Part shown: in pieces, positions 1,396 through 43,168 of the stretch
How the letters are laid out: each line of letters opens with the position of its first letter
Position numbering within the stretch: position 1 is the stretch's first letter
Source of the DNA: Bacteroidales bacterium
Lineage (GTDB): Bacteria; Bacteroidota; Bacteroidia; Bacteroidales; WCHB1-69
NCBI GenBank assembly: GCA_016285085.1
Contig: JAEEQA010000004.1
Coordinates: 13,836-77,835, forward strand
Reading direction: 5' to 3'
DNA: 64,000 nucleotides
Notes under the pieces: generated by a model
Database searches by the model: none
What the model saw: the letters and a program-made list of their open reading frames with translations, nothing else
What the model was told of the DNA's origin: nothing
Program-made: the position numbers and the translations under genes

Positions 1396-1418
1396 TGAAT
1401 TACATCTTCATCAGCCCT

Positions 1419-4584: not shown

Positions 4585-4614
4585 TGTAGAGACGCGATTC
4601 ATCGCGTCTCTACA
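4585..4614. repeat. Palindromic element copy 1 (TGTAGAGACG-CGATTCATCG-CGTCTCTACA); likely tyrS terminator hairpin
   Basis: Inverted arms GTAGAGACG/CGTCTCTAC with a self-complementary centre (CGAT..ATCG). Starts 8 bp after the tyrS stop. Confidence 0.85.
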
Positions 4615-5563: not shown

Positions 5564-5602
5564 GATATGATTTTTTGAGTGAATTAAAACAGAAACTGTC
5601 CG

Positions 5603-5610
5603 CAAAGATA
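5603..5610 (-). promoter_or_regulatory. Putative -7 box TATCTTTG (minus strand)
   Basis: TAnnTTTG match 40 bp upstream of the start at 5563. The identical octamer precedes the paralog at 33966. Confidence 0.45.
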
Positions 5611-5814: not shown

Positions 5815-5844
5815 TGTAGAGACGCGGTGCACCACGTCTCTACA
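5815..5844. repeat. Palindromic element copy 2 (centre CGGTGCACCA)
   Basis: Same arms. The inner GGTGCACC is a perfect palindrome, with one C.A mismatch next to the arms. Lies downstream of the minus-strand gene that ends at 5926. Confidence 0.85.
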
Positions 5845-5874: not shown

Positions 5875-5905
5875 TGTAGAGACGCCATATTATGACGTCT
5901 CTACA
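5875..5905. repeat. Palindromic element copy 3 (centre CCATATTATGA)
   Basis: Same arms, with a near-self-complementary 11-nt centre. It is 30 bp from copy 2 and 21 bp downstream of the stop at 5926. Confidence 0.85.
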
Positions 5906-5925: not shown

Positions 5926-7083
5926 TTATTCCCGGAACAATTTCGAATGCACCGGGAAGACATCGGCCAATTCACCGGAATAGAAGAAATCGTTGCCGAG
6001 GACACCGAAGGTGTAGGTGATGCCGTTGACCGACACGTGCGAGCCGCCGCAGCGAGGTTCCGCGCTGGGTTTGGAGGCGGCGAAACCGAGGTTGAAAAGG
6101 GTACACAGGATGTCGGGGCGGTCGGCGATGCTGTAGCCGGCACGTTCCCACTGCAACATCGTCTGGTGCAGGATACACCCTGTATAGATGTACGAATAGA
6201 GATGGTTGCGATAATCCACCAAGCGGTTGAAACGAGCCAGCTCGATGTCTTCCACTTCGGTGGTGTCGTAATCCAGAATGTTTTCGTACTCCTTGCCCAT
6301 GTAGAAGACGGAGGTGGAGTCCTTCAGGTTGCGTTCGACCTTGGCGGCGGTGAAGTCCTTGATGCCGTTGACTCCGAAGGAGAAGGTGGATTGCACGCTC
6401 ATGACGGCGGGACCAAGGTAGCGTTTCACATCCTCCCGCTTGGAATTGAAGAGGCGGATCTGTTCGCCGACGGTGCAGGCCACGATGAGGCGCGGGTCCA
6501 CGCCGGTGAGTTCGGCTGCCTGCTTGATGGCCTTCTCGTCGCGGAGGATGGCCCGTTTCAGCACTAGCCAGCCGGAGTCGTTCATCCACGGGATGAGGTT
6601 GTCGGGCGTGAGCGACTGCGGGTGCTTGCGGTAGGCCGCCATCACATCGTCGAGAATCAGGCGGTACTGCTGCCCGATGGAGTCATCCTTAAGGTACATG
6701 TTGGCAGCATAGACCATGCGGTTCACGCACTGCGGGTCGTCGCTGTGACGGCTGGCCTCGTAAATCAGGTGCGCGTTCAACGGATACGATTTGCTGAGCA
6801 CGGCGAGGTTGAGGTAGTTCTCCATCCTTTCGGCAAAGAAAGCGGATGAATCCAGCACCGTTTCCCGCTGCTGGTAATCAGCCAGATAGCGGTTGTTCTT
6901 GTCGATGCCGCCGGCGTTGTTGGTGATGCCGACTTTATAGAGGCCCCACGCCGCCACCATCGCCAAACCGACACAAGCGAACAGATGGATGAAAATCTGG
7001 TAGATTTTCGACCGCGTTTTCAGCAAACGCCACGCCTTGAAAAGCGACTTTTTCTCTGATTTTCCTAAGGATTCCGTATTCAT
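5926..7083 (-). CDS. Hypothetical membrane-anchored protein
   Basis: The ORF track gives 5926..7119. The ATG at 7083 (MNTESLG...) is preceded by a -7 box. One N-terminal TM segment ('IFIHLFACVGLAMVAAWGLY'). No family recognised. Confidence 0.55.
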   Translation of the reverse strand: MNTESLGKSEKKSLFKAWRLLKTRSKIYQIFIHLFACVGLAMVAAWGLYKVGITNNAGGIDKNNRYLADYQQRETVLDSSAFFAERMENYLNLAVLSKSYPLNAHLIYEASRHSDDPQCVNRMVYAANMYLKDDSIGQQYRLILDDVMAAYRKHPQSLTPDNLIPWMNDSGWLVLKRAILRDEKAIKQAAELTGVDPRLIVACTVGEQIRLFNSKREDVKRYLGPAVMSVQSTFSFGVNGIKDFTAAKVERNLKDSTSVFYMGKEYENILDYDTTEVEDIELARFNRLVDYRNHLYSYIYTGCILHQTMLQWERAGYSIADRPDILCTLFNLGFAASKPSAEPRCGGSHVSVNGITYTFGVLGNDFFYSGELADVFPVHSKLFRE

Positions 7084-7105
7084 TTCCCCTTGAAAAAAAA
7101 CGGCG

Positions 7106-7113
7106 CAAACATA
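7106..7113 (-). promoter_or_regulatory. Putative -7 box TATGTTTG (minus strand)
   Basis: TAnnTTTG match 23 bp upstream of the start at 7083. Confidence 0.4.
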
Positions 7114-7172
7114 CAACAAAGTTTGTCAAGTTCATCAAGAATATAAAGTTTATCAAATTTTCAAAATTTGCG

Positions 7173-9294: not shown

Positions 9295-9297
9295 GCC

Positions 9298-12200
9298 ATG
9301 AAGGAAAATATTTTCATCAAAAGACACGTGATGGCCTGCGCAATCGCGGTTGTCATCACTCTGATAGGATTCATCTGCATCACCACGCTGCCCATTGAGC
9401 AGTATCCTGACATCGCTCCTCCGACCGTGCGTGTGTCCACATCCTACACCGGCGCCGATGCAAACACCATCATGAAGTCGGTGGTGCAGCCGTTGGAGGA
9501 AAACATCAACGGCGTGCCCGGCATGACCTACATCACCAGCTCGGCTTCGTCCACGGGCGAAGTGTCCATCCAGGTCTATTTCGAGCAGGGCACCGACCCC
9601 GACCTCGCCGCTGTGAACGTGCAGAACCGCGTCAGCCGCGCCACGGCACTGCTGCCCTCCGAGGTGACAAAAGTGGGCGTGCAAGTGATGAAGCAGCAGA
9701 ACAACATCCTTCACATCGGTGCACTGAAAAGCACCGACGGCAAGTACGATGCCGACTTCATCTCCAACTACATCGACATCAACGTGCGGCCCCGCCTCAT
9801 GCGTATCACCGGCGTGGGCGATGTGATGTCACTCGGTAACACCTACGCCCTCCGCATCTGGCTGAAGCCCGACGTGATGGCGCAGTATGGACTGGAACCC
9901 AACGACGTGTTTGCGGCCATCGGCGGACAGAGCTTCGTCGCCGCCACGGGCTCCTTGGGCGAACAGAGCGAGAACGCCTACCAGTACTCGATGGAGTACA
10001 AAGGCACGCTCAAAAGCGTCGAGGAGTTCAACGACATCGTGCTGCGGACAAGCGACGGCGGCCACCTTCTGCACCTGAGCGATGTGGCAGACGTGGAAAT
10101 CGGTGCCATAAGCTATAACTTCACCTCCAACATCGACGGCAAGCCCGGCACCATTTACATGGTCTTCCAAGCCCCGGGCGCCAACGCCACAGAGGTGAAC
10201 GCCCGCATCAGCAAGCTCTATGAGGATCTGAAGCCGACGATGCCCGCCGGACTCGAATTCGTGATACTGGAGACCTCCGACGACTTCCTTTTCGCCGCCA
10301 TCCACAACGTGGTGGAAACTCTCGTCATTGCCATCATCCTTGTTATCCTGGTCGTTTATTTCTTCCTGCAAAGCTTCAAGGCGACAGTCATCCCCTCCCT
10401 GTCAATCATTGTGTCGATGTTGGGTACCTTTGCGATTGTGAAGGTTGCGGGATTCTCCCTGAATATATTGACATTGTTTGCCTTGGTGCTCGCCATCGGA
10501 ACGGTGGTGGATGACGCCATTGTGGTGGTGGAGGCGGTGATGGCGAAGATGGAGGGCGGCATATCGGACGCCCGCGAAGCCACCCGCCAGGCCATGAGCG
10601 ACGTCTCCGTGGCAGTCATCTCGTGTACCTTGGTCTTCATGGCCGTGTTCATCCCCGTGGCCTTCATGCCCGGCACGTCAGGATCGTTCTTCCTGCAGTT
10701 CGGTGTCACGCTGGCATCCGCCGTCGGTTTGTCGTGCGTGTCGGCTTTGACGCTGTGCCCTGCCCTGTGCGGCCTTATGATGCGCTACTCCGGCGACGAG
10801 CAGGAAAAGAAGAGCCTGAACTATTATGTCAAAAAAGCCTATACCGTCAGCTACAACGCCATTCTTAAAAAATACAAGAAGAGCGTCGGCGGTTTCATCA
10901 AGCGCCCGTGGGTTGCGGGGCTGTTGTTAGCCATCGCTGCCGTGCTGCTCGTTCTGGCCATGCGCGGTCTGCCGTCCGGCCTTGTGCCGCAGGAAGACCA
11001 GGGCGTTTTCTTCGCCGAAGTGCGTGCTCCGGAAGGATGCACCCTCCACGAAACAGAGGAGATTGTGAAAAAGGTGGAGGAAAAAATAAAGAAGATTCCC
11101 GAACTGGAAAGCTACGCCGTAGTCAACGGCTACGGCATGATGGCGAACCAGTCAGCCAGCTGCTACGCCACGCTCATCGTCCGCTTGAAGAACTGGGGTG
11201 ACCGTCCGGGCATGAACCACAACATCGTACTGGTGTACTCCCGTTTCGCCATAGACTGCATGGATATCAAGAACGCGATGGTCATTCCGTTCCAGATGCC
11301 GCAGGTGCCGGGTTACGGTTCCAACAGCTGCGTGAACCTTGTGCTGGAGGATCAGCTGGACCGTCCGATGACGGAGTTCAATGCGGATGCCAACAAATTC
11401 CTGAACAAACTGAACGAGCGGCCGGAAATCATGATGGCCATGTCCTCCTACTCCGAGCGCTTCCCGAAGTATCAAGTCAGCGTCGATGCCACGCAGTGCG
11501 ACCGCGCCGGCGTGTCGCCCGCAGCCGTGCTCCAGACCCTTGGGGCCTATTGCGGCGGCTCGTATATCGGCAACTTCAACCAGTTCGGCAAGGTCTATCG
11601 CATCATGGCGAACGCCTCTCCCGACTACCGCCTCGACCCCTCTGCACTCAACAACATTTTTGTCCGCGTGAGTGGCGGCAAGATGGCTCCCATCTCCGAG
11701 TTCGTCACGCTGAAAGAGATTGTCGGTTCGGCCTCGGTTGAACATTTCAACCTGTTCCAGAGCATCACCTGCGGTGTGATGACCGCCGGCGGTGCCTCGG
11801 AAGGCGACGCGCACCAGGCCATCGCCGAGGTGTTCAAGGAGACGATGCCCACCGGCTACAGTTATGAGTACGGCGGAATGTCGCGCGAAGTGGAGGAGAC
11901 CGCCGGTTCGAACGCCACCGCCCTCATCTACGTCATTTGCGTCATCCTCATTTACCTCATTTTGGCTTCCCTCTACAACTCGTGGTTCACACCGTGGGCC
12001 GTGTTGCTCTCCGTTCCCTTCGGCTTGCTGGGTTCGTTCGGCATCACGTGGATGGTCTCGCTGCTCCACCTGCCGGGAATGGAAAACAACATCTACCTGC
12101 AGACAGGTGTCATCATGCTCATCGGTTTGCTGGCGAAGACGGCCATCCTCATCACCGAGTTTGCTTCGGAGCGCCGGGCGCAGGGACTGAGCATCCGCGA

Positions 12201-12573
12201 TGCTGCCTTTGCAGCCTGTGAGGAGCGTCTCCGTCCCATCCTGATGACTGTCGTCACGATGATTGCGGGTATGATTCCGCTCATCGTCGCCGGCGGTGCG
12301 GGCGCCAACGGCAACCGCGTACTCGCCCTCGGTGTCACCGCCGGTATGGCGGTCGGCACACTGGCCCTGCTCTTCGTCGTTCCCGCCTTCTTCATCGTGT
12401 TCCAGACACTTCACGAGAAGGTACACGGAGCGCCGGTGGCAGTGGTAGCAGAGGAGGTGCCTGAAGTAAGGACTGAAATTGAAACCGAAGTCAAAGAAGA
12501 GACTTCCGTTCAAGATAAAGCTGAAGAAATTATTGATTCAGAGAAGAACAACGAAAATAATTCTGAAAAATGA
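9298..12573 (+). CDS. Efflux RND transporter permease (AcrB/HAE1-type)
   Basis: 1091 aa with a 12-TM architecture and two large periplasmic loops, plus typical segments ('FIKRHVMA..', 'LAIGTVVDDAIVVVE'). It has an unusual acidic C-terminal tail of about 45 aa. Confidence 0.93.
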   Translation: MKENIFIKRHVMACAIAVVITLIGFICITTLPIEQYPDIAPPTVRVSTSYTGADANTIMKSVVQPLEENINGVPGMTYITSSASSTGEVSIQVYFEQGTDPDLAAVNVQNRVSRATALLPSEVTKVGVQVMKQQNNILHIGALKSTDGKYDADFISNYIDINVRPRLMRITGVGDVMSLGNTYALRIWLKPDVMAQYGLEPNDVFAAIGGQSFVAATGSLGEQSENAYQYSMEYKGTLKSVEEFNDIVLRTSDGGHLLHLSDVADVEIGAISYNFTSNIDGKPGTIYMVFQAPGANATEVNARISKLYEDLKPTMPAGLEFVILETSDDFLFAAIHNVVETLVIAIILVILVVYFFLQSFKATVIPSLSIIVSMLGTFAIVKVAGFSLNILTLFALVLAIGTVVDDAIVVVEAVMAKMEGGISDAREATRQAMSDVSVAVISCTLVFMAVFIPVAFMPGTSGSFFLQFGVTLASAVGLSCVSALTLCPALCGLMMRYSGDEQEKKSLNYYVKKAYTVSYNAILKKYKKSVGGFIKRPWVAGLLLAIAAVLLVLAMRGLPSGLVPQEDQGVFFAEVRAPEGCTLHETEEIVKKVEEKIKKIPELESYAVVNGYGMMANQSASCYATLIVRLKNWGDRPGMNHNIVLVYSRFAIDCMDIKNAMVIPFQMPQVPGYGSNSCVNLVLEDQLDRPMTEFNADANKFLNKLNERPEIMMAMSSYSERFPKYQVSVDATQCDRAGVSPAAVLQTLGAYCGGSYIGNFNQFGKVYRIMANASPDYRLDPSALNNIFVRVSGGKMAPISEFVTLKEIVGSASVEHFNLFQSITCGVMTAGGASEGDAHQAIAEVFKETMPTGYSYEYGGMSREVEETAGSNATALIYVICVILIYLILASLYNSWFTPWAVLLSVPFGLLGSFGITWMVSLLHLPGMENNIYLQTGVIMLIGLLAKTAILITEFASERRAQGLSIRDAAFAACEERLRPILMTVVTMIAGMIPLIVAGGAGANGNRVLALGVTAGMAVGTLALLFVVPAFFIVFQTLHEKVHGAPVAVVAEEVPEVRTEIETEVKEETSVQDKAEEIIDSEKNNENNSEK

Positions 12574-13955
12574 AAAGGATATTCTTTGTCATAGCCGTCA
12601 GCGTAATGTGCATCGCGTTCTCAGGCTGCGGCATCTACAACAAATATACATCGCAATCACGAATCGCCTCCGACATCTACGGCACGACGGAGGACGTGAC
12701 GGAGGCACAGAACGAAAAGTCCATTGCGGAGCTGTCGTGGCGCGAGTTCTTCACCGACCCGTTGCTGCAGAAACTCATCGATTCAGCGCTGGTGCACAAC
12801 ACGGATGCCAACTCGGCCCGCATTGCCGTGGAACAGGCACAGATCTCCCTCCGTACCACGAAACTGGGATATTTGCCTTCCGTCGCATTCGCGCCCTCTG
12901 TCGGCGTGAATTCCTACCTGAACGAAGGCAGCATGGCCTCCACATTGACCTACAGTCTCCCCCTACAGTTGGACTGGGACCTCGACATCTTTGCCGTGAA
13001 CACCAACCAGAAGCGCAAAGCGCAGGCGGTTCTGTGGCAGATGGAGGCACATGAGCAGATCGTGAAGGCCAACCTCATCTCTGCCGTGGCACAGCAATAT
13101 TTCATGCTGCAACTTCTTGACCACCAGTTGGAAATCCTGCTTTTCACCGATTCACTTTGGAACACTTCCCTGGAGACGCAGCGGGCACTGTGGGAAAACG
13201 GCAAGGCCTTTTCCACCGCCGTCAACCAGATGGAGTCTTCCTATCTGACCATGAAAATGCAGGTGGTGGATGTAAAACGCAGCATCCGCAACGTGGAAAA
13301 CTCCATTTGCCAACTGCTTGCCATCGCACCGCAGTCCATCGCACGCAGTCGCTGGAACACCTACGAGCTGCCGCAACAGCTGAGCACGGGCGTGCCGGCC
13401 CAGCTGCTTGAAAACCGTCCCGACATCAAAATGGCCGACCACCGACTGGAAGAAGCGTTCTACAACACGCAGGCAGCCCGTGCGGCATTCTACCCCAAGA
13501 TTTCATTGCAGGGTCTATTGGGGTGGGGTAACAACTCCGGCATGATACCGAATCCCGGCTCACTGCTGCTGAACGCCCTTGCCTCCCTCGTACAACCCAT
13601 TTTTGCCCAAGGAAAATTGAAAGCAAACCTCAAAATCAGCAAGCTTTCTCAAGAAGACATCCAACAGCAGTATGTGCAGACGGTTATCAACGCGGGAAAT
13701 CAGGTGAACGAGGCATTGGCCGACTGCCAGGTCGCCCGTGAAAAAGACGTTTACTACAAACGCCAGGTCGAGGTGCTGCACGATGCCTACGACGGCACGC
13801 ACGAACTGATGGACAACGGCAAGGCCAGCTATTTGGAAGTCTTGTCTGCACAGGAGGGACTTCTCTCCGCGCAGATCAGCGAGGCCACGAACCTGTACAA
13901 CGGCAACCGCGCCCTCATCGCGCTTTACATTGCGTTGGGCGGTGGAACGAAATAA
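12570..13955 (+). CDS. Efflux transporter outer-membrane factor (TolC/NodT-family lipoprotein)
   Basis: Shows a lipobox 'AFSGC' and two TolC-like repeats. Its start overlaps the RND permease stop by 4 nt (ATGA). Confidence 0.88.
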   Translation: MKRIFFVIAVSVMCIAFSGCGIYNKYTSQSRIASDIYGTTEDVTEAQNEKSIAELSWREFFTDPLLQKLIDSALVHNTDANSARIAVEQAQISLRTTKLGYLPSVAFAPSVGVNSYLNEGSMASTLTYSLPLQLDWDLDIFAVNTNQKRKAQAVLWQMEAHEQIVKANLISAVAQQYFMLQLLDHQLEILLFTDSLWNTSLETQRALWENGKAFSTAVNQMESSYLTMKMQVVDVKRSIRNVENSICQLLAIAPQSIARSRWNTYELPQQLSTGVPAQLLENRPDIKMADHRLEEAFYNTQAARAAFYPKISLQGLLGWGNNSGMIPNPGSLLLNALASLVQPIFAQGKLKANLKISKLSQEDIQQQYVQTVINAGNQVNEALADCQVAREKDVYYKRQVEVLHDAYDGTHELMDNGKASYLEVLSAQEGLLSAQISEATNLYNGNRALIALYIALGGGTK

Positions 13956-20267: not shown

Positions 20268-23200
20268 ATGGATACTATGAAAAATATCGCTCCTTTGTCT
20301 CAATCGCAATTAGGTATTTATGCCGAATGCGTACATCACGAAAACGAGATCTTTTATAACCTCCCCTTTCTCTATGTTTTTGACGGCAGTCTCGACGCCG
20401 ACCGGTTGTGCCGCGCCATAGAGGCGACCTTAAAGGCGCATTCCACTTTCTTCACACGGATTGAACTGAGTGATGACGGAGAACCTTTGCAGACTATTGA
20501 CCTGGAAAAAGAGGAATTCAGCCTTTCCGTCGAGCAGGTTACGGACCTTGAGGCTGAGAAGCGAAAATTCATCGAGCCTTTCAAACTCCATGGCGGCAGG
20601 TTGTTTCATACCAAGGTGATGCGCGACGCGGAGCATGTCTATTGGTTCTTCGACATGCATCATATCATCAGCGACGGCTCCTCGTACCATATTATCGTTT
20701 GCGATGTGGAAACGGCTTACAACGGCGGCACGCTGGCTCCCGAGGAGATGACGATGCAGGAACTGGCCCTTGCCGAAGCCGAGATGCGGAAAACGCCTGC
20801 TTTCGAGGAGGGCAAACAGTGGTATGCCCAGAACTTCGACTGCGGCGACACGTTCACCCAGCTCATGCCCGACCTCGAAATCCCCGAACAAACAGATGCC
20901 AATAAACACCGCGTCCTCAATACTGATATGGACCGGGTGGATGCTTTCTGCAAGACCAACGGCATCAAAAAAAGCACCTTCTTCACGTCGGCATTTTCTT
21001 TCCTGCTGGCCAAGTACAACAACGATCAGGAATCGCTGTTCACCACGGTTTTCAACGGTCGCACCGACCCGAAGTTCCAACATTCCGTCGGCATGACAGT
21101 AAAGACGCTGCCCGTTTACGCCAAGTTCACGGAAGAGACCACGGTGCTCGATTTCATGAAAGCCGGCGAGGAACAGATGATCGGCTGCCGCAAGCACGAC
21201 CTCTATTCCTATACCGACATCATGACCGACCTCAACCTGCAAACCAACGCCATATTTGCATGGCACGGGCTCATACTTGATTTCACCGAACTGATGGGCA
21301 AACCCATGGAGGCCATTCAGCTCCGCAAACATAACGAGGGAGTGTCGTTCTATCTGATGGCTTACTATGTCGGCAAAAAATATCATATCAAAGCGGAATA
21401 CAACGCCAACGAATATTCCGAGACGCTGGTTGACCAATTCATGGAGAGTTACGAGGCGGTTTTGGAGGGCTTCCTAAGCCAAACTCTCCTGTGCGACATC
21501 GACATCTGCACCGAGAGCCAGCGCGCCCTGCTTGACCGTTTCAACCAGACCGACAAGGAGTTGGATATGAACGCGACCATCGTTTCCAAGTTTCGTGAGC
21601 AGGTGGCGAAGACTCCTGACAACATCGCGGTGGTTTATCAGGACAAACGTTTTACCTACAAAGAATTGGATGAGATTTCCGACCGCATCGCAGCCTATAT
21701 CCATGGGAAAGGCCTTCATGAAGAGGATGTCGTTTCTGTGTTGATTCCGCGTTGCGAATGGATGCCTATCGTCTCCATGGGCGTGTTGAAGGCCGGCTGT
21801 GCTTACCAGCCCCTCGACCCCACCTATCCTTCGGAACGTCTCAACTTCATGATGCAGGATGCCTCCGTGAGGTTGCTCATCGCCGACCCGGAACTGCGCG
21901 GTATCGTCGATCAATACACCGGCGAGGTGCTGTTTACCACGGACATCAAAACATTGGAAACCGTAGAGACGTTTCATGAAACGTCTCTACAACAGCCGAA
22001 TTCGTCCTCCCTTTTCATCATGCTTTACACTTCCGGCACTACGGGAACGCCTAAGGGCTGTCAGATTGTGCATCGCAACATCGTTGCGTTCTGCGAGTGG
22101 TACCACCACCGGTTCAACCTCACCGCTGACTGCCGCGTTTCGGCCTACGCCAGTTTCGGTTTCGATGCCAATATGATGGAAACCTATCCTGCGCTCACGT
22201 GTGGTGCCACGCTCTACATTATCCCTGAAGAACTGCGCCTGGATTTGCTGGCATTGAACGAATATTTTGAGCAAGAGCAGATTACTCACGGATTCATGAC
22301 CACGCAGGTGGCTTATCAGTTTGCCACTTCCATTGAGAACCACTGCCTGCACTACCTGTTGACAGGCGGCGAGAAGCTGGCACCCCTGACCCCGCCTGCG
22401 AACTACACGCTGGTGAACCTCTATGGTCCGACCGAAAGCACCGTCTGCATCACCTCCTTCGACGTGACAAAGCCCATGAAGGACATCCCGATTGGCTCGG
22501 CGTTGGACAACACCAAGCTTTATATTGTCGATAAGGCGGGTCACCGTCTGCCGGTGGGGGTAGCGGGTGAGCTCTGGGTCGCCGGACCGCAAGTGAGTCG
22601 CGGCTACCTCAACCGTCCCGAAAAAACCGCTGAGGTCTATATCGACAACCCCTTCGATTCCAGCGAGAAATACGCGCACATCTACCGCACCGGCGACATC
22701 GTACGCTACCTGCCCGACGGCAACATCCAGTTCGTGGGACGTAAGGACGGACAGGTCAAGATCCGCGGTTTCCGCATCGAATTAAAAGAGGTTGAAGGCA
22801 TCATCCTTCAATTCCCCGGCATCAAGGACGCCACCGTGCAAGCCTTCGATGAAGAGGGCGGCGGCAAGTTCATTGCGGCCTATATCGTTTCCGATGAACA
22901 AATTGACATCGATGCCTTGAACAACTTCATCATGGAGGAGAAACCGCCTTACATGGTGCCCGCCGTGACGATGCAGATCGACCGGATTCCGCTCAACCAG
23001 AACCAGAAAGTGAACAAGAAAGCCCTTCCCAAGCCCGAGAAGAAAGCGGCTGAGGCGGTGGTGGAGAGCAATGTGCCCATGAATGTACTTGAGAAGGAAA
23101 TCCACGACATCATTGCAAAAATCATCAATACCGAGGACTTTGGCGTAACGACCGTATTGGGCTATGTCGGCCTCACCTCCATCATGGCCATCAAACTGGC

Positions 23201-26200
23201 CATCCAGATCAACAAACGTTTCGGGGTCACCCTCGACTCGAAATCATTGGCCAAGACGGGTACTTTGCAAAGCATTGAAAACGAAATCCTAAACGCGATG
23301 CTCTCAGGAAATGTCGCTGTTCATTCCAGCGAGTCTGGGCAGTCTGTTCAGACAGAACAGGCCACTCCGACAGGTCCGGTTCCCTTGAGCTACGCGCAGA
23401 TGGGTGTCTATGTGGATTGCATGAAACAGCCCACGTCCACGGTCTATAACATTCCTTCACTCATCCGTTTTCCCAAAGGAACCGACGTGCTGCTGCTTGC
23501 CAAATCTGTGGAGACCCTCGTCAAGGCGCACCCGCAGTTCTTTGTGCATTTTGACAGCGAAGGAGGCGAAATCGTACAGATTGTTGACACCAATCAACCG
23601 GTTACCGTCACAAAGAGCCAGTTAAGTGAAACGGAACTGGAAAAATACAAGGTGAAGTTTGTAAGACCGTTCAACTTGCGGCAGGGACCGCTGTACCGCA
23701 TGGAAATCGTCACCACCGGGCAGGATGTTTACCTCTTGGCCGATGTCCATCACCTGATTTTCGACGGCGGTTCCTTCGACCTGTTCCTGAACCAGTTGTG
23801 CGACCTGATGAACGGCAAAGAGATCGAAGCCGAGGCCATCAACTATGCGGCTTTTGTCGCCGACGAGAAAGCGGCTGAAAACAGTCCGAGCTACCTTGAG
23901 GCCAAGAACTTCTTCAACGAGCGTTTGGGTAAAGTGGAGGGCGTCACCGAAGTGCCTGCCGACCTGACCAATCCCGTGGAGCAAGGCACGGTCAGCGAGG
24001 CTTTCTGCAAGCTGGATTTCGATGCGATGGAGGAATTTTGCAAGAAAAACAATCTCTCACCCGCGCACCTCACCCTGGCGGCGGTGTTCTATGCGCTCTC
24101 GCGTTTCACCAACAACGAACAGATTTGCATCACCACCATCAGCAACGGCCGCTCTGACCTGCGCATCCGCAACACGACGGGCATGTTTGTCAACACGCTG
24201 GCCCTGAGTGCCCAGATTGGCGACCAAAGCGTGATGGACTTCCTGAAGGAGACCAGCCAGAACTTCAACGAGACTTTGACCCATGAAAAATATCCGTTTG
24301 CGCAAATTGCCGCCGACTACGACCTGTCGGCCGAAATCATGTTTGCCTATCAGATGGGTGTTATTGACCAATATCTTGTCAATGGTCAAAAACTTGAAAT
24401 AGAGTCTCTTGAGCTGAACACACCGAAGTTCCGTATCGCTTTCTACATTCAAGAAAAAGAAGGTGTGCCGGGCGTGGTGGTGGAATACGACAATGGTCGC
24501 TACAGCCAGGAACTGATGCAAAGTCTGGCGCAGTCGGTCAGCAATGCAGTCAATGCTTTCATCCGCCAGCCGGAGTCGGCGTTGCAGCATATTTCCCTGC
24601 TGGATGCCGAACAGACCGCTTTGCTCGACAGCTTCAACCAGACGGCTGTGCCTTACGACGACACCCAGACCATTGTTTCGCTGTTCCGCAAGCAGGTGGA
24701 GCAAACGCCCGACAATCTGGCGGTGGTGTATCATGATAATAAATACACCTATCGCGAGGTGGATGAGATTTCGGAGCGCATCGCAGGCTATGTCGTCGCA
24801 CAAGGACTTGGGAACGAAGATGTCGTTTCCGTGCTGATTCCGCGCTGCGAATGGATGGCCATCGTTTCGTTGGGCGTTTTGAAGGCCGGCTGCGCCTACC
24901 AGCCCCTCGACCCGAGCTATCCCGCCGAACGTCTGAACTTTATGATGAAAGACGCCGCTGCAAAACTGCTCATTGCCGATGAAGAATTGCGTCCCATCGT
25001 AAATGAATATGAAGGAAAGGTGTTGTTGACAAAGGATATTGCGACATTGAACCCTGTAGAGACGTTTCATGAAACGTCTCTACATGAAACGTCTCTACAA
25101 CCGACGCCGTCCTCCCTTTTCATCATGCTTTACACCTCCGGTTCCACGGGAACGCCGAAGGGTTGTCAGCTGGAACATGGCAACTTGGTGGCTTTCTGCC
25201 ATTGGTATCAGCGCCATTATGGGCTGACGGCCGCCGACCGCGTGGCGGCGTATGCCAGCTATGGTTTCGACGCCTGCATGATGGACCTTTACCCGGCGTT
25301 GACGTGCGGTGCCTGCGTCCACATCATTGGGGATGACATCCGCCTGAACCTGCCCGACCTCAACAACTATTTCAATGAGCAGGGCATCACCCACTCGTTC
25401 ATCACCACGCAGGTGGGCTACCAGTTTGCCACGAATGTGGACAACCACTCACTGCGTTGCTTCGCGGTGGGTGGCGAGAAGCTGTCCGCCCTCAACCCGC
25501 CGACAAACTACAAGATGTACAACGGCTACGGTCCGACGGAGTGTACCATCTTCACCACCAACTACTGGGTGAAGGATTACGAGCTGGACATCCCCATCGG
25601 CAAACCGCTGGACAACCTGAAACTCTATATCGTTGACAAGCAGTTTAATAGATTGCCTCTCGGGGCTGCCGGCGAACTATGGGTCACGGGACCGCAGGTG
25701 AGCCGTGGCTACCTGAACCGTCCCGAAAAGACGGCCGAGACCTACCTGAAGAACCCCTTCAGCGATGACCCGAAGCACGCCCGCGTCTATCGCACCGGCG
25801 ACATCGTGCGCTACCTCCCTGACGGCAACATCCAGTTTGTGGGGCGCAAGGACGGTCAGGTGAAAATTCGCGGCTTCCGCATCGAGCTGAAGGAGGTGGA
25901 AGCTGTCATCCGCCAGTATCCGGGCATCAAGGACGCCACCGTACAAGCCTTTGATTATGAGAACGGTGGAAAGTACATTGCCACCTATATTGTCAGCGAT
26001 GAGAAAGTTGACATCAAACAGCTCAATGCTTTCATCGGGCAGCAGAAACCGCCCTACATGATTCCGGCGGCGACGATGCAGATTGACAGCATCCCGCTGA
26101 ACCAGAACCAGAAGGTGAACCGCAAGGCACTGCCCACGCCCGTCATCCAAGCCAGCGACCGTGAGTATGTGGCACCGGCCAATTCGGCGGAGGAGCTGTT

Positions 26201-27602
26201 CTGCCGTATCTTCGGTGAGGTGCTCGCTCTCGACAAAGTCGGCGCCACCGACAACTTCTTCGATCTCGGCGGCACCTCTCTGATGGTGACCCGCGTCATC
26301 ATCGAGGCCGACAAGCAGGGGGTGCATGTGGCCTACGGCGACGTCTTCGCCAATCCCACCCCGCGCAAACTCGCCGCACTCGTCATGGGAGGCATTGTTG
26401 TCAATACCGACGATGAGGAGGTGACCCGATTTGATTATTCTTCCATCAACAATTTACTGGGTAACAATACATTGGATAGCTTCCGCAATGGCGAGCGGCA
26501 ATCCTTGGGCAACGTTCTGCTCACCGGTGCCACAGGTTACCTGGGCATTCATGTGTTGCAGGAACTGATCCAGTCGGATGCGCAGAACATCTACTGTCTG
26601 GTACGCGACAAGAACCTGGATGGCGCCGAGCACCGGTTGAAAACATTGCTGTTCTACTATTTTGAATCCACCTACGACGAGCTGTTCGGCAACCGTCTTC
26701 ACATTGTCCTTGGCGATGTCACCAACGACCTGACCGCTCTTGTCGAAGCGAAGATTGACACGGTGTTCAACTGTGCCGCTGTCGTAAAGCACTTCAGTGA
26801 AGGCACCGAGATTGAGGATGTGAATGTGGGAGGCGCGCAGCGTTGTGTGGAGCTCTGTCTGAAGACCGGCGCACGGTTGGTACACATTTCCACGTACAGC
26901 ACCAGCGGGCTCAACGTCAACGACACCATGGCTTCCGACTACATCTTCACCGAGCAGCGGCTTTACGACGGTCAGTACCTCGGAAACCAGTACGTTCATT
27001 CCAAGTTCATGGCCGAACGCATCGTACTGCAATCGATAGTAGAGGACGGGCTGTCGGCCAAGGTGATCCGTGTCGGTAACCTGGCGGCACGCACCAGCGA
27101 CGGTGAGTTCCAGATCAACTTCTCCACCAACTCCTTTATGGGGCGTATCAAAGTCTTTAACATGCTGGGCTGCTTCCCCTATTCTCTGTACGAGAGTAAA
27201 GTGGAGTTTTCACCCATTGATGAGGTGGCGCATGCCATCATTCTGCTCAGTTCCACACCCAAGGAGTGCTGTGTGTTCCATGCTTACAACAGCCACGAGC
27301 AGTTCCTCGGCGACGTCCTCAGCGGATTCAACAACCTGGGCACAAACATCCGTCTCGTGGAGGACGAGGAGTACAACGCCACCATGGAGAGTGCGGGCAA
27401 CGATCCCCAGAAGGCCAAGACGCTTTCCAGCTTGCTCGCTTACCAAGATATGGCCCACGGCATGAAAGTCAAACAGGTGGTCGTTAGTAACCAGTACACC
27501 ACGCAGGTGCTCTATCGTCTGGGCTTCAAATGGTCGCCCACCACGTGGGACTACGTCGATCGCATGTTGAGTGCCATCAGCGGGTTGGGATTCTTTGATT
27601 AG
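20268..27602 (+). CDS. Bimodular non-ribosomal peptide synthetase, C-A-T-C-A-T-R (terminal thioester reductase)
   Basis: 2444 aa. Two 'HHxxxDG' C-domain motifs (HHIISDG, HHLIFDG). Two adenylation cores ('LYTSG(T/S)TGTPKG', 'YGPTE', 'GELWV.GPQVSRGY', 'YRTGD', 'GRKDGQVKIRGFRIEL'). Two carrier sites ('GLTS', 'LGGTS'). The C-terminal SDR carries 'LLTGATGYLG' and 'YVHSK'. Confidence 0.93.
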   Translation: MDTMKNIAPLSQSQLGIYAECVHHENEIFYNLPFLYVFDGSLDADRLCRAIEATLKAHSTFFTRIELSDDGEPLQTIDLEKEEFSLSVEQVTDLEAEKRKFIEPFKLHGGRLFHTKVMRDAEHVYWFFDMHHIISDGSSYHIIVCDVETAYNGGTLAPEEMTMQELALAEAEMRKTPAFEEGKQWYAQNFDCGDTFTQLMPDLEIPEQTDANKHRVLNTDMDRVDAFCKTNGIKKSTFFTSAFSFLLAKYNNDQESLFTTVFNGRTDPKFQHSVGMTVKTLPVYAKFTEETTVLDFMKAGEEQMIGCRKHDLYSYTDIMTDLNLQTNAIFAWHGLILDFTELMGKPMEAIQLRKHNEGVSFYLMAYYVGKKYHIKAEYNANEYSETLVDQFMESYEAVLEGFLSQTLLCDIDICTESQRALLDRFNQTDKELDMNATIVSKFREQVAKTPDNIAVVYQDKRFTYKELDEISDRIAAYIHGKGLHEEDVVSVLIPRCEWMPIVSMGVLKAGCAYQPLDPTYPSERLNFMMQDASVRLLIADPELRGIVDQYTGEVLFTTDIKTLETVETFHETSLQQPNSSSLFIMLYTSGTTGTPKGCQIVHRNIVAFCEWYHHRFNLTADCRVSAYASFGFDANMMETYPALTCGATLYIIPEELRLDLLALNEYFEQEQITHGFMTTQVAYQFATSIENHCLHYLLTGGEKLAPLTPPANYTLVNLYGPTESTVCITSFDVTKPMKDIPIGSALDNTKLYIVDKAGHRLPVGVAGELWVAGPQVSRGYLNRPEKTAEVYIDNPFDSSEKYAHIYRTGDIVRYLPDGNIQFVGRKDGQVKIRGFRIELKEVEGIILQFPGIKDATVQAFDEEGGGKFIAAYIVSDEQIDIDALNNFIMEEKPPYMVPAVTMQIDRIPLNQNQKVNKKALPKPEKKAAEAVVESNVPMNVLEKEIHDIIAKIINTEDFGVTTVLGYVGLTSIMAIKLAIQINKRFGVTLDSKSLAKTGTLQSIENEILNAMLSGNVAVHSSESGQSVQTEQATPTGPVPLSYAQMGVYVDCMKQPTSTVYNIPSLIRFPKGTDVLLLAKSVETLVKAHPQFFVHFDSEGGEIVQIVDTNQPVTVTKSQLSETELEKYKVKFVRPFNLRQGPLYRMEIVTTGQDVYLLADVHHLIFDGGSFDLFLNQLCDLMNGKEIEAEAINYAAFVADEKAAENSPSYLEAKNFFNERLGKVEGVTEVPADLTNPVEQGTVSEAFCKLDFDAMEEFCKKNNLSPAHLTLAAVFYALSRFTNNEQICITTISNGRSDLRIRNTTGMFVNTLALSAQIGDQSVMDFLKETSQNFNETLTHEKYPFAQIAADYDLSAEIMFAYQMGVIDQYLVNGQKLEIESLELNTPKFRIAFYIQEKEGVPGVVVEYDNGRYSQELMQSLAQSVSNAVNAFIRQPESALQHISLLDAEQTALLDSFNQTAVPYDDTQTIVSLFRKQVEQTPDNLAVVYHDNKYTYREVDEISERIAGYVVAQGLGNEDVVSVLIPRCEWMAIVSLGVLKAGCAYQPLDPSYPAERLNFMMKDAAAKLLIADEELRPIVNEYEGKVLLTKDIATLNPVETFHETSLHETSLQPTPSSLFIMLYTSGSTGTPKGCQLEHGNLVAFCHWYQRHYGLTAADRVAAYASYGFDACMMDLYPALTCGACVHIIGDDIRLNLPDLNNYFNEQGITHSFITTQVGYQFATNVDNHSLRCFAVGGEKLSALNPPTNYKMYNGYGPTECTIFTTNYWVKDYELDIPIGKPLDNLKLYIVDKQFNRLPLGAAGELWVTGPQVSRGYLNRPEKTAETYLKNPFSDDPKHARVYRTGDIVRYLPDGNIQFVGRKDGQVKIRGFRIELKEVEAVIRQYPGIKDATVQAFDYENGGKYIATYIVSDEKVDIKQLNAFIGQQKPPYMIPAATMQIDSIPLNQNQKVNRKALPTPVIQASDREYVAPANSAEELFCRIFGEVLALDKVGATDNFFDLGGTSLMVTRVIIEADKQGVHVAYGDVFANPTPRKLAALVMGGIVVNTDDEEVTRFDYSSINNLLGNNTLDSFRNGERQSLGNVLLTGATGYLGIHVLQELIQSDAQNIYCLVRDKNLDGAEHRLKTLLFYYFESTYDELFGNRLHIVLGDVTNDLTALVEAKIDTVFNCAAVVKHFSEGTEIEDVNVGGAQRCVELCLKTGARLVHISTYSTSGLNVNDTMASDYIFTEQRLYDGQYLGNQYVHSKFMAERIVLQSIVEDGLSAKVIRVGNLAARTSDGEFQINFSTNSFMGRIKVFNMLGCFPYSLYESKVEFSPIDEVAHAIILLSSTPKECCVFHAYNSHEQFLGDVLSGFNNLGTNIRLVEDEEYNATMESAGNDPQKAKTLSSLLAYQDMAHGMKVKQVVVSNQYTTQVLYRLGFKWSPTTWDYVDRMLSAISGLGFFD
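20280..21557 (+). other. NRPS condensation domain C1 (N-terminal, starter-like position)
   Basis: Approximately aa 5-430; HHIISDG at aa 131-137 (nt 20658-20678). Boundaries approximate. Confidence 0.7.
21576..23042 (+). other. NRPS adenylation domain A1
   Basis: Approximately aa 437-925. A3 'LYTSGTTGTPKG', A4 'FDANMME', A5 'NLYGPTESTVCIT', A10 'NQNQKVNKKAL'. Boundaries approximate. Confidence 0.75.
21963..21990. repeat. Palindromic element copy 4 (centre TTTCATGAAA), in-frame inside NRPS A1
   Basis: A perfect 28-bp palindrome, GTAGAGACGTTTCATGAAACGTCTCTAC. It is translated as VETFHETSLQ (aa 566-575), immediately N-terminal to the A3 core motif. Confidence 0.9.
23079..23297 (+). other. NRPS carrier (T/PCP) domain T1
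   Basis: Approximately aa 938-1010. The attachment site is 'GYVGLTSIMAIKL' (Ser971, nt 23178-23180), which deviates from the canonical LGGxS. Confidence 0.6.
23373..24662 (+). other. NRPS condensation domain C2
   Basis: Approximately aa 1036-1465; HHLIFDG at aa 1161-1167. Confidence 0.7.
24669..26147 (+). other. NRPS adenylation domain A2
   Basis: Approximately aa 1468-1960. A3 'LYTSGSTGTPKG', A4 'FDACMMD', A5 'NGYGPTECTIFTT'. Long stretches are near-identical to A1. Confidence 0.75.
25055..25099. repeat. Palindromic element copy 5 (centre TTTCATGAAA) plus a 15-bp partial duplication, in-frame inside NRPS A2
   Basis: The full palindrome at 25056-25083 is followed by a repeat of its right half, ATGAAACGTCTCTAC (25084-25098). 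Translated as VETFHETSLHETSLQ (aa 1597-1611), at the position homologous to copy 4. Confidence 0.9.
26175..26387 (+). other. NRPS carrier domain T2
   Basis: Approximately aa 1970-2040. Canonical 'FFDLGGTSLM' (Ser2004). Confidence 0.75.
26514..27599 (+). other. NRPS terminal thioester reductase (R) domain
   Basis: Approximately aa 2083-2444. Rossmann 'TGATGYLG' and catalytic 'Y(2242)VHSK(2246)'. Confidence 0.8.
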
Positions 27603-27636: not shown

Positions 27637-29328
27637 TTATTCCTTCACCACCTTCCCCACGGATATCACCTTGCCGTCGTCCACCAATTTCACGAAATAG
27701 ATGCCGTTGGCGTAACGGGACAGATCAATCTGTACGGCCTGTAGAGACGTTTCATGAAACGTCTCTACAATATCCAACATCCTGCCAAACACGTCAAACA
27801 CCTGGATTTCAGGGTTAAGGGACAAGGTTTCCGGAGCCAGTTGGACGGTGGCGATGCCCGTGGTGGGGTTCGGATAGAGGATGAGGTCCGTGGTGCTGTT
27901 TTCGGTGATACCGACTATGGCATTTAGACAGCTGGTGGTGTCGGTACATCCGTTATAGGTGATAATGCAAGCGTATGAACCAGATGTCACGGGTTCAAAC
28001 AACCGTTCGGTAGCATTTTCAACCCACTCATTGGTTCCACAATCAATCCATTGGTATTCAGCGTTTTCTTGAGCTGCTTCCATTCTAATTGCGTACCATT
28101 GTGTACCAATCCAAGTAAGTCCTGTATTGATGCGGGTCACTGTCAAGGTCATGATGACAAGGCTGTCGCAGTCATTCGAGGAAGTCAGCATTACGCTGTC
28201 CGTGCCGTCGTTCTCAAACACAATACCGTTCCATGTATAGGGAAGTTCGCTCTCGCAAATGGTGGCTTCAACCAATTCGGTTACCGGTGTGTATATGGTA
28301 AGGTGCAGTATGATAGTGCTGTCGCTGTTCTCGATAGGATGCGTATAGTCTCCGCTGGAGGTGAGTTCTTCGCCGTACCAGTCGAAACTGCCACAGGCAA
28401 CGGCAGTGGTGTCAATAATGACAGGAGGTTCCACTCCCGCTGCCCAAAGCCGGAGGTTGTCGAGATAAAGGGACGAGCCCTGTTGCGGTTCGGAGTTGGC
28501 CGAAGAGAAGATCATAATCACCAGCGAATCGGCCTCCACATATTCAACGGTGCTGTCGATTTCGGAAAGCGGGGTATAGACAATTTCGAAGGGGGTGTAG
28601 GCCGAAACGTCCGTCAGGTTTGCGGTGTATCCGCCGCCCACGACCTCGCGCTGCTGCGTGGCAGGATTGTACTTGGACCCCAGCACCAGAATGCCGCCCT
28701 TGTCCCCGCCAACGCCCGAGGTGTATTTGTAATAGCCCGTCATCCGGCCAAAAGCCTCTCCGTTCAAGGGAATACCGCCGTCAATGATACTGTTGAGATC
28801 GACGCTGTCAAAGACACCCAGCAACAGGGGAAGACTGTCGAAATTGTTGGTGAAATCTTCTAACATCGGCAGCAGCTGGTCGATATCCACCGCGCCTGTG
28901 GTCAAAACCGTCGGGAACACCGTGGTGGTCAGCCACTCGTCTAAAGAGGATGAAGCCAGATTGTAAACGGTGGAATTGACGATGTCGGAGAGCATGAAAC
29001 TCTGCAGCTTGACCGCATGGGAACCCTCGGGCACGCCGGTGGTTTCGTCGGAAACTTTCAGTAGCGGAAGGTCCGTGTTCACATTGACCGTCATTCCGAA
29101 ATAGGTGACACTCTCGTTCACGGGATAGGTGGGGTAATTCCAGCCCGTCGGATACGTATAGCTATCGTAAACAGGCAAGGAGATAAAACCGCCCACGGAT
29201 GCGCTGTACCCATTGCCTGTTGACCAGTTCTCAAAACCGCTGTTTGTCAGAGGAATGGAATTTTGTCCCGTCGTCTTCACCGACAGGAGAAAAAAGAGGG
29301 GTAAAAGGAGAAGGATAAAACGTTTCAT
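27637..29328 (-). CDS. T9SS C-terminal-sorting-domain cargo protein (secreted, function unknown)
   Basis: The ORF track gives 27637..29370, but its first 14 codons derive from palindrome copy 7. The ATG at 29328 gives the signal peptide 'MKRFILLLLPLFFLLSVKTTGQ'. The N-terminal region is 'NSGFENW'-type. The C-terminus 'LYPNPTTG....VFDVFGR......IDLS.YANGIYFVKL...K' matches the Por_Secre_tail pattern. Confidence 0.78.
   Translation of the reverse strand: MKRFILLLLPLFFLLSVKTTGQNSIPLTNSGFENWSTGNGYSASVGGFISLPVYDSYTYPTGWNYPTYPVNESVTYFGMTVNVNTDLPLLKVSDETTGVPEGSHAVKLQSFMLSDIVNSTVYNLASSSLDEWLTTTVFPTVLTTGAVDIDQLLPMLEDFTNNFDSLPLLLGVFDSVDLNSIIDGGIPLNGEAFGRMTGYYKYTSGVGGDKGGILVLGSKYNPATQQREVVGGGYTANLTDVSAYTPFEIVYTPLSEIDSTVEYVEADSLVIMIFSSANSEPQQGSSLYLDNLRLWAAGVEPPVIIDTTAVACGSFDWYGEELTSSGDYTHPIENSDSTIILHLTIYTPVTELVEATICESELPYTWNGIVFENDGTDSVMLTSSNDCDSLVIMTLTVTRINTGLTWIGTQWYAIRMEAAQENAEYQWIDCGTNEWVENATERLFEPVTSGSYACIITYNGCTDTTSCLNAIVGITENSTTDLILYPNPTTGIATVQLAPETLSLNPEIQVFDVFGRMLDIVETFHETSLQAVQIDLSRYANGIYFVKLVDDGKVISVGKVVKE
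27640..27890 (-). other. T9SS type-A C-terminal sorting domain (interrupted by a 10-aa palindrome-encoded insert)
   Basis: The last ~83 aa. Boundaries approximate. Confidence 0.7.
27741..27768. repeat. Palindromic element copy 6 (centre TTTCATGAAA), in-frame inside the T9SS sorting domain
   Basis: The same perfect 28-bp palindrome as copies 4 and 5. On the minus strand it again reads VETFHETSLQ. It lies about 140 bp beyond the convergent NRPS stop. Confidence 0.9.
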
Positions 29329-29358: not shown

Positions 29359-29386
29359 GTAGAGACGCAAAATTTTGCGTCTCTAC
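29359..29386. repeat. Palindromic element copy 7 (centre CAAAATTTTG), intergenic
   Basis: A perfect palindrome, GTAGAGACGCAAAATTTTGCGTCTCTAC. It sits 16 bp downstream of the stop at 29402 (minus strand) and 31 bp upstream of the start at 29328. Confidence 0.9.
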
Positions 29387-32289: not shown

Positions 32290-32317
32290 GTAGAGACGCA
32301 AAATTTTGCGTCTCTAC
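32290..32317. repeat. Palindromic element copy 8 (centre CAAAATTTTG), between the TM1266-like gene and hydG
   Basis: Identical 28-mer to copy 7. Coordinates are anchored on ORF-track positions (hydG start 32245; ORF 32306; stop 32323). Confidence 0.9.
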
Positions 32318-32345
32318 AATTTTCAATTTTCCGTTTTCAATTTCG
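32318..32345 (-). repeat. Heptamer tract spanning the TM1266-like gene stop and abutting palindrome copy 8
   Basis: The minus strand reads GCGAAATTGAAAACGGAAAATTGAAAATT. It encodes the same C-terminal peptide, KLKTEN*, as the GNAT gene at 1911-1931. Confidence 0.75.
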
Positions 32346-32580
32346 CCACCATTGATTTCGCTTCCACGTCGGGCAGGCGGCCCAGTTTGCCGGTGAGGGC
32401 GCTGATCTGGTCGGTGGTGCCTTCAATGATGAGGGAGATGAAATGGATGCCCTTGTCGCGCAGGGGCAGTCCCTGGCGGGCCAAAACAAGGTCGGCGAAC
32501 TCCGAAAGAAGCTCGTTCACTTGGGGAACAATGTCGCGGTTGCTGATGAGGATGCTGATGCTTCCGATTCTCTTTTCCAT
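32323..32580 (-). CDS. TM1266-family putative iron-only hydrogenase system regulator (small ACT/RHH-like protein)
   Basis: 85 aa, immediately upstream of hydG on the same strand. 'ISILI.NR......VN.LL..F...I..R.G.P......I.LI.EG..D.I.AL.GKLG.L' matches my recollection of this family. Confidence 0.65.
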   Translation of the reverse strand: MEKRIGSISILISNRDIVPQVNELLSEFADLVLARQGLPLRDKGIHFISLIIEGTTDQISALTGKLGRLPDVEAKSMVAKLKTEN

Positions 32581-43094: not shown

Positions 43095-43168
43095 GCCCCC
43101 GTAGTTCAGCTGAATAGAATGTCAGATTCCGGTTCTGAAGATCGTGGGTTTGAATCCCGCCGGGGGTA
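43095..43168 (+). tRNA. tRNA-Arg (anticodon CCG)
   Basis: Hand-folded cloverleaf of 74 nt. Acceptor GCCCCCG/CGGGGGT, D stem GTTC/GAAT, anticodon stem TCAGA/TCTGA with loop TTCCGGT, T arm GTGGG-TTTGAAT-CCCGC. Confidence 0.88.

Follow-up and report, generated by a model that had tools for sequence, protein, structure and literature searches.

Among the tyrosine transposases that are associated with REPs (RAYTs, TnpA_REP) the subclass 2.4, or RAYT group 4, is, according to Quentin et al. (2018, PMC6006769), plentiful in Cyanobacteria and Bacteroidetes, with scattered occurrences elsewhere. According to the same text these enzymes carry the motifs NH[IFV]H, WQ and YIxNNP, their repetitive extragenic palindromes (REPs) include a "double foot" form with 5' GT[AG]G and 3' C[TC]AC, and, as a feature unique to this subclass, REPs lie in frame within the tnpA_REP genes, between HuH and Y. 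For the GTAG- and CGTC-tagged REPs, stem variants that stay complementary were reported, as was a preferred location on the 3' side of open reading frames (ORFs); in-frame REP copies inside known genes are documented and the GTAG REPs are tied to RAYTs (Di Nocera et al. 2013, PMC3733652). Here we analyzed a 64-kb stretch of DNA from a Bacteroidales bacterium (contig JAEEQA010000004.1, in the following called the window) and, within it, a 28-bp palindrome translated in the first adenylation (A) domain, A1, of a dimodular nonribosomal peptide synthetase (NRPS). We conclude with a probability of about 0.8 that this palindrome is an intragenic double-foot REP of the TnpA_REP subclass 2.4 (RAYT group 4) type, because all observations fit the description in PMC6006769. 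The NRPS copy is therefore a clear case of an already described phenomenon, and its kind is known.

The two host genes and the genic repeats, with the copies numbered along the window, are:
20268..27602, plus strand: host gene of the dimodular NRPS, 2444 aa, reading frame intact
21963..21990, no strand assigned: REP copy 4, double-foot, core TTTCATGAAA, in frame in NRPS A1
25056..25083, no strand assigned: REP copy 5, identical 28-mer, at the homologous site ahead of the A3 motif (pre-A3 site) in NRPS A2
25084..25098, plus strand: right half-element (ATGAAACGTCTCTAC) duplicated in tandem, 15 bp, adds HETSL in frame
27637..29328, minus strand: host gene of a secreted 563-aa protein (start codon ATG at 29328) that has a C-terminal sorting domain of the type IX secretion system (T9SS)
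27741..27768, read on the minus strand: REP copy 6, identical 28-mer, VETFHETSLQ, aa 521-530, in the Por_Secre_tail domain

The palindrome at 21963-21990, GTAGAGACGTTTCATGAAACGTCTCTAC, is perfect over its two halves of 14 bp (28 bp in total). It is translated as VETFHETSLQ, amino acids 566-575 of the NRPS, and the A3 motif LYTSGTTGTPKG lies ten residues further on. Both other frames of the 28-mer are closed: frame 2 has a TAG at its start, and frame 3 runs into TGA. An earlier reading of this DNA without database searches (the sequence-only reading) had pointed out the palindrome and its translation ahead of A3, the single open register and the retention of a repeated palindromic element in a coding sequence solely in that register; all of this was confirmed, the two closed frames being readable directly from the DNA, and the reading frame of the NRPS gene is intact. 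The 28-mer gave no match in 100 shuffles, where none is expected, and the arm 9-mer GTAGAGACG occurs 17 times in the 64-kb window versus 0.32 expected. As RNA, copy 4 folds into a hairpin of -20.3 kcal/mol (z -5.9).

The palindrome is not a single event, and the other copies had escaped the same reading: the window contains eight copies of the family, three of them identical 28-mers within genes and five intergenic. The copy in A2 sits 3093 bp (1031 codons) downstream of that in A1. The 15-bp duplication behind it leads to HETSL-HETSL and an alternative hairpin with 17-bp arms; it is missing in the closest relative, L121, whose A2 site holds another core. The intergenic copies are:
4586..4613, no strand assigned: REP copy 1, core CGATTCATCG, between convergent genes
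5816..5843, no strand assigned: REP copy 2, core CGGTGCACCA, intergenic, one half of a dimer whose other half, copy 3, is 32 bp away
5876..5904, no strand assigned: REP copy 3, 11-nt core CCATATTATGA, 21 bp past the stop of the gene 5926..7119 (minus strand)
29359..29386, no strand assigned: REP copy 7, core CAAAATTTTG, 15 bp past the saccharopine dehydrogenase (SacDH) stop
32290..32317, no strand assigned: REP copy 8, core CAAAATTTTG, 5 bp past the stop of an 85-aa gene, 32323..32580 (minus strand)

All eight copies begin with GTAG and end with CTAC and form 13-14 of 14 pairs, and thus have both feet. The arms of the five intergenic copies are GTAGAGACG...CGTCTCTAC, usually extended by T...A, and enclose other cores, which are palindromic themselves. 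Just as described for extragenic REPs, five of the eight copies are intergenic and lie mostly just past stops: four of these five are found 5-38 bp behind a stop codon, and the fifth is the dimer partner 32 bp away. Copy 1 is located 8 bp past the stop of the tyrosyl-tRNA synthetase gene and 38 bp past that of a PDDEXK_2 gene, and copy 7 also lies 30 bp ahead of the ATG of the T9SS-tail gene. The hairpins of the window reach -20 to -26 kcal/mol as RNA, with z from -5.4 to -8.0. The element is dispersed in many copies beyond the window as well, with five in 26 kb of the relative L121.

To define the family we scanned one genome per species, 596 Gb in total, for the pattern GTAGAGACG-N8-12-CGTCTCTAC and obtained at least 120 loci. 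The repeat has a 14-bp stem in which the outer nine pairs (GTAGAGACG/CGTCTCTAC) are invariant, while the inner five vary and yet stay complementary. The loci come from Bacteroidota, many Nostocales and other Cyanobacteria, Chloroflexota, Spirochaetales, Geobacter/Desulfuromonas and Acidobacteria, and the matches listed include further hosts among the Ignavibacteria, Rhodothermales and candidate phyla; among these matches the distribution corresponds to the one given for subclass 2.4, namely Cyanobacteria, Bacteroidetes and scattered phyla. A pattern with 18 fixed bases would turn up by chance about 40-90 times in 596 Gb, and we considered whether the matches in other phyla were of this sort. 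This was ruled out by the palindromic cores: among the matches listed, 88 of about 124 cores of ten or eleven nucleotides are perfectly self-complementary, with a chance of 1/1024 for each. Because the cores, which the pattern leaves unconstrained, are self-complementary far above chance, the matches represent one real family. Again among the matches listed, 18% of the copies elsewhere fall within long open frames, versus 66% of random positions. Several of the in-frame copies in other genomes are found inside GH2, Mur ligase, pullulanase and T9SS-tail domains, and the genic copies elsewhere are translated as VET....SL. or.RDA...VST.

A partner enzyme was searched at the palindrome loci by tblastn, using the RAYT sequences from the supplement of PMC3733652 and then the ORFs that they matched. 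HUH-Y1 genes were detected in eight of the at least 120 loci, and all eight contain the palindrome or lie within 350 bp of it. By our own arithmetic a random gene in an 8-kb locus would be that close in about 1 of 6 cases; given eight of eight, the proximity of the RAYT genes is not due to chance. In one locus (L022) the gene forms a REPtron, with identical REPs flanking it at 38 bp and 45 bp; in other genomes the REP is adjacent to the gene (L053, L104, L001) or inside it in frame (L020, L081, L112). Seven of the eight linked proteins carry NH[LF]H, WQ..HDH and YIxNNP, which are the subclass 2.4 motifs. The sole NCBIfam match of the linked proteins is "REP-associated tyrosine transposase" (REP_Tyr_transpos), with E values from 1e-15 to 1e-18, and in Pfam they match Y1_Tnp. 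An unsupervised clustering of the ORFs near the palindromes revealed no evident partner, since low-complexity N-terminal extensions masked the RAYT cluster.

Two Y1 genes of other subclasses were recorded. In L087 (the cyanobacterium Dulcicalothrix desertica), one of the eight linked loci, the same REP arms at 928-955 are located 119 bp downstream of a Y1 transposase gene (1071-1838, minus strand) with the motifs SNHIH, WE and YIHANP, which may be a coincidence or a second partner. In L129 a Y1_Tnp gene (25160-25643) lies 8 kb from the NRPS gene; the locus has no double-foot REP across 27 kb. This gene was rejected as a RAYT candidate, as it is of the subclass 1.2 type (DHVH, WQ, YIRGQENHH).

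The presence of the element in the NRPS was then compared among orthologues, an alignment that the sequence-only reading had proposed. More than 100 NRPS orthologues with 70-94% identity were available, from Bacteroidales metagenome-assembled genomes where named. Between TKDI..L and SLFIMLYTSG they contain a hypervariable cassette of 16-21 residues, in agreement with the sequence-only reading, which had put the palindrome in a stretch of the A domain that varies. The cassette has three forms, and the DNA of the relatives agrees with them at the pre-A3 site. It is either a REP translation that differs according to the core (VETFHETSL; VETMCTSSL, from ATGTGCACAT; VETLRATSL, from TTGCGCGCAA; VETRHGTSL), or a translation of tandem heptamers (NSQLSTLNSQ, VNYQLSTP; the DNA in L129 is (RTCAACT)x4), or unrelated sequence. 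Heptamer arrays were noted in L129 (11653-11740 and 14740-14830) and in P0002, P0007, P0012, P0044, P0048, P0083 and P0112.

Most of 120 NRPS homologues lack the peptide of the VETFHETSLQ type, which is thus not ancestral, and alleles without the palindrome exist; a conserved peptide in all homologous A domains, the outcome that would have spoken against an insertion, was not observed. The part of the sequence-only reading that called the element a 30-bp insertion stands only in this respect. The alleles without the palindrome are only 3-5 residues shorter, and no clean empty site was found: in L123, L126 and L129 the slots hold other sequence of similar length. In the solved A domain of LgrA the loop at the pre-A3 place is of equal length. 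Because the REP-less alleles are a few codons shorter and the LgrA loop has the same length, we conclude that the REP replaced loop-coding DNA. In the AlphaFold2 model of A1 the peptide is predicted in a stretch devoid of secondary structure (residues 122-160 of the fragment) with a predicted local distance difference test (pLDDT) score below 50, the model as a whole being poor (mean 54.9). The hypervariability of the cassette across orthologues supports a loop that would tolerate such sequences.

A comparable pattern, with boundaries that are identical, is seen in the sorting domain of the T9SS protein. The GTAGAGACG element is present in the window and in L121, another double-foot REP (GTAGGGGCGAATAATCATTCGCCCCTAC) in L128, and a copy of the L128 element with 9 bp deleted in L127. 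The loop of L126 is REP-less and 12 nt shorter, and resembles the P.KET.EL loop that is found in place of the element in all distant homologues of the T9SS tail. The repeat of L128 belongs to a second double-foot REP family (GTAGGGGCGAAT.ATCATTCGCCCCTAC, read VGANNHSPLQ), with members at L128:7564-7591, at L127:9652-9679 and in the T9SS loop of L127, and its place in the sorting domain is exactly the slot that the GTAGAGACG element takes up in the window. The REP-less allele of L126 (..GACGAAACG..) and the right arm of the REP with the core TTTCATGAAA at 27741-27768 share the hexamer GAAACG. In the sorting-domain loop this hexamer codes for the conserved "ET"; its presence in both could reflect microhomology or a selection for cores that keep the "ET".

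Differences between orthologous sites concern not only the presence of the element but also its core. In the spacer between the SacDH and the T9SS gene the core is CAAAATTTTG in the window, CCATATTATGA in L121, L127 and L128, and CGATTAATCG in L126, with identical arms, and the A2 site holds four different cores among the orthologues. Orthologous intergenic REPs with identical arms and different cores were noted at 29359-29386 and 32290-32317 of the window, at L121:17728 and 20659, L126:713, L127:5939 and L128:5938. Neighboring copies of one genome tend to share the core: the window has TTTCATGAAA three times in 6 kb and CAAAATTTTG twice in 3 kb, four copies in L065 and two in L022 have one core, and the A1/A2 pairs of L124 and L130 share theirs. 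The combination of fixed arms with a wholesale swap of the core at orthologous sites is possibly a new observation. It points to a replacement of REP contents by local copying. In a reading of limited likelihood, resident double-foot REPs would act as fixed slots, in which the feet and the outer stem stay while the inner stem, or a whole REP of another arm family, is swapped, preferably from copies a few kb away. The swap would then be a replacement of one REP cassette by another through the RAYT or through hairpin-primed template switching, distinct from ordinary transposition and from drift by point mutation. If true, such a cassette exchange would explain why the genic copies overwrite loops instead of lengthening them.

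This pattern also bears on how the genic copies were written. Instead of being placed by a transposase, they might have been copied from a nearby REP by template switching or short-patch gene conversion, with the arms or a microhomology as primer, which would leave the identity as a REP unchanged. Such a process would overwrite loop DNA and account for core swaps at fixed sites, and several results are in line with it: at the SacDH-T9SS spacer and at A2 the arms are invariant and the cores wholly replaced; the other double-foot REP of the T9SS loop (GTAGGGGCGAAT..ATTCGCCCCTAC) coincides precisely with this 28-bp slot; cores are common to neighboring copies of one genome; REP alleles substitute for the loop, and the REP-less T9SS allele has GAAACG in common with the right arm of the REP; finally, the same cassette is often present in A1 and A2, which indicates that intermodule conversion is active. 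However, arms of nine bp are very short for conversion of the RecA type, A1 and A2 are discordant in L121, P0021 and P0045, and local hopping by a RAYT explains the shared cores of neighbors equally well, so that we regard this route as an option of limited likelihood. A retention of the hairpin for a function in the NRPS, as a pause for ribosome or polymerase between folding units, as an RNase site, or through an A1/A2 identity that promotes recombination of modules, appears improbable. The stem in the mRNA is indeed a stable one, at -20 to -26 kcal/mol and with z from -5.9 to -8.0, palindromes with different complementary cores occur at the same pre-A3 site in several lineages, the copies of A1 and A2 are identical over 28-43 bp, and a relative with three modules (P0001) has repeats at each pre-A3 site. 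But the covariation is seen in all intergenic members and therefore characterizes the family rather than the site, and other orthologues fill the same loop with unrelated sequence or with tandem heptamers. In addition, the element is missing in the close orthologues L123 and L129, and the copies in A2 of L124 and in L130 are decaying with mismatches in the arms, which argues against purifying selection. Because several orthologues lack the element or have decayed copies, the role as ribosome pause or RNase target that the sequence-only reading had suggested is not favored.

Mobilization by genes for PD-(D/E)XK "transposases" (PF12784, Rpn-like), to which the element might then belong, was suggested by the neighborhood. 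Two such genes, 4652-5605 (minus strand) and 33966-34871 (plus strand), lie within 30 kb of each other in the 64 kb, the former being bracketed by three copies, one of them 38 bp downstream and two upstream at 210/270 bp. The PDDEXK_2 family is multicopy in the same phyla. Only one of the at least 120 palindrome loci contains a PDDEXK_2 match, though, and this match is weak, which largely refutes PDDEXK_2 as the partner enzyme; no copy is found within 1.6 kb of the second gene of the window, L123 has an unflanked PDDEXK_2 gene, and the linkage to RAYT genes is strong by comparison. We consider this explanation very unlikely. We also considered whether the palindrome arose by chance, as an artefact of the assembly or as a scar from cloning, since the element has two outward-facing BsmBI sites (CGTCTC/GAGACG) and the literature matches to the arm 9-mers are almost all primers or BsmBI cloning oligonucleotides. 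With zero chance matches expected, the same element at the same sites in independent assemblies of different samples (L121 and L122; L124 and L125; P0121), and a family in at least 120 loci of unrelated natural genomes, the probability of such an origin is practically negligible.

Assignment to the double-foot REPs of subclass 2.4 thus remains the best explanation, and the following course of events would be consistent with it. A subclass 2.4 RAYT, for which such REPs are the cognate hairpins, is thought to recognize the GTAG foot and the hairpin on single-stranded DNA and would cut and rejoin at the hairpin base. Most copies would settle just downstream of genes, where the transcribed hairpin (about -20 kcal/mol) could act as a 3'-end structure. 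A minority would enter coding DNA and could persist if the frame is kept, if the register avoids the TAG of frame 2 and the TGA that frame 3 meets with this core, and if the loop is tolerant; these three conditions presumably hold in NRPS A1, NRPS A2 and the T9SS sorting domain. The presence or absence of the element and the core replacement between orthologous loci are indirect evidence at most, and mobility as well as binding and cleavage of the single-stranded hairpin by the cognate RAYT are putative. We infer that a RAYT moved the NRPS copy, and the ten encoded residues are probably functionally neutral.

Several points weigh against this assignment. The REP-bearing alleles are only 3-5 codons (9-15 nt) longer than the REP-less ones, which a simple cut-and-paste mechanism does not predict. 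No RAYT gene was found within the 64-kb window or the syntenic relatives L121-L130. The neighboring proteins at the other loci score 57-67 bits, compared with an NCBIfam equivalog cut-off of 80, two of them are borderline for Pfam Y1_Tnp, and one of the eight linked genes (L087, from a cyanobacterium) is of another subclass. Finally, GTAG is paired with CTAC here and unpaired in the canonical description, and the cleavage chemistry of a double foot is putative.

The NRPS gene has the Pfam order condensation, AMP-binding, PP-binding, condensation, AMP-binding, PP-binding and terminal reductase (C-A-T-C-A-T-R). NRPSs of this C-A-T-C-A-T-reductase type are widely conserved (more than 100 orthologues) across Bacteroidales metagenome assemblies, and L130 has two of the genes in tandem. 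The architecture may resemble that of the gut dipeptide-aldehyde synthetases. The gene adjoins a SpoIIE/STAS partner-switching pair, and a phosphopantetheinyl transferase gene is also near in the window, L121 and L123. Elsewhere in the window a complete RND efflux operon (8170-13955, plus strand) encodes an HlyD-type adaptor, an AcrB-type pump and an outer-membrane factor. An ORF of 6340 aa (44954-63976, minus strand) with Ig-like, PKD and CHU_C-associated repeats corresponds to a giant surface protein; next to come after it are an OmpA-family gene (43305-44867) and a tRNA gene (43095-43168). Rfam matched nothing over the window besides a tRNA.

These results have consequences for annotation, as the recurrent ten-residue peptides (VET....SLQ,.RDA...VST) in unrelated Bacteroidales proteins can be flagged as repeat-derived. 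For NRPS engineering it is of use that the pre-A3 loop tolerates 10-15 foreign residues or heptamer translations in nature. Identical DNA in the loops of two modules may favor recombination of modules. The rumen Bacteroidales lineages, with orthologous sites that combine invariant arms and swapped cores, make the mode of REP turnover directly testable.

The Rickettsia palindromic elements (RPEs), reportedly described by Ogata et al. in 2000, were the precedent named by the sequence-only reading. They are likewise palindromic repeats in frame in functional protein genes, at surface-exposed parts. RPE-1 measures about 100-150 bp and is confined to Rickettsia, and the short RPE-4 and RPE-6 are REPs of the CGTC type with no dedicated transposase. 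The element of the window, in contrast, is 28 bp long, GTAG-tagged and from Bacteroidales, its sequence is unrelated, and the RPEs have no link to RAYTs. The GTAG REPs and the double-foot REPs of TnpA_REP subclass 2.4 therefore fit better as precedent. The small dispersed repeats (SDRs) of Nostoc were reportedly described by Elhai et al. in 2008 as hairpins of 21-27 nt with compensatory changes in Nostocales, often within tandem heptamer arrays, and a movement through RNA was reportedly proposed. Similarly, the NRPS loop holds either a REP or a heptamer array, and short tandem repeats flank the REPs in RAYT genes (L081, L104). The REPs and bacterial interspersed mosaic elements (BIMEs) of Escherichia coli with their TnpA_REP (RAYT subclass 2.2) are alike in that an HUH-Y1 enzyme recognizes GTAG plus a hairpin and in the extragenic location at 3' ends. 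The REP type at one locus of E. coli varies between strains. Unlike the element described here, they have imperfect, bulged stems and a single foot, are essentially never genic and belong to another RAYT subclass.

With the GTAG REP superfamily (Di Nocera, De Gregorio and Rocco, PMC3733652) the element has in common stem-loops of 20-40 bp, the GTAG tag, complementary subfamilies, a location mostly just downstream of ORFs, the formation of dimers and in-frame genic copies. The GTAG of the superfamily, however, is unpaired at one end, whereas that of the window is paired with CTAC. The survey in PMC3733652 gives Bacteroidetes for CGTC repeats only, while the repeat of the window is GTAG-tagged, and the GTAGAGACG arms were not found in its supplements. 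The closest correspondence is that to the double-foot REPs of subclass 2.4 (PMC6006769; Bertels et al. 2017). The window differs from these in having no RAYT gene, and the available part of PMC6006769 makes no mention of copies in NRPS A domains or T9SS sorting domains or of core turnover at fixed sites. The likeness comprises the long hairpin with its GTAG/CTAC feet, the host range, the position of REPs that flank tnpA_REP genes with NH[IFV]H/WQ/YIxNNP motifs or interrupt them in frame, and the frame-preserving genic copies in putative loops.

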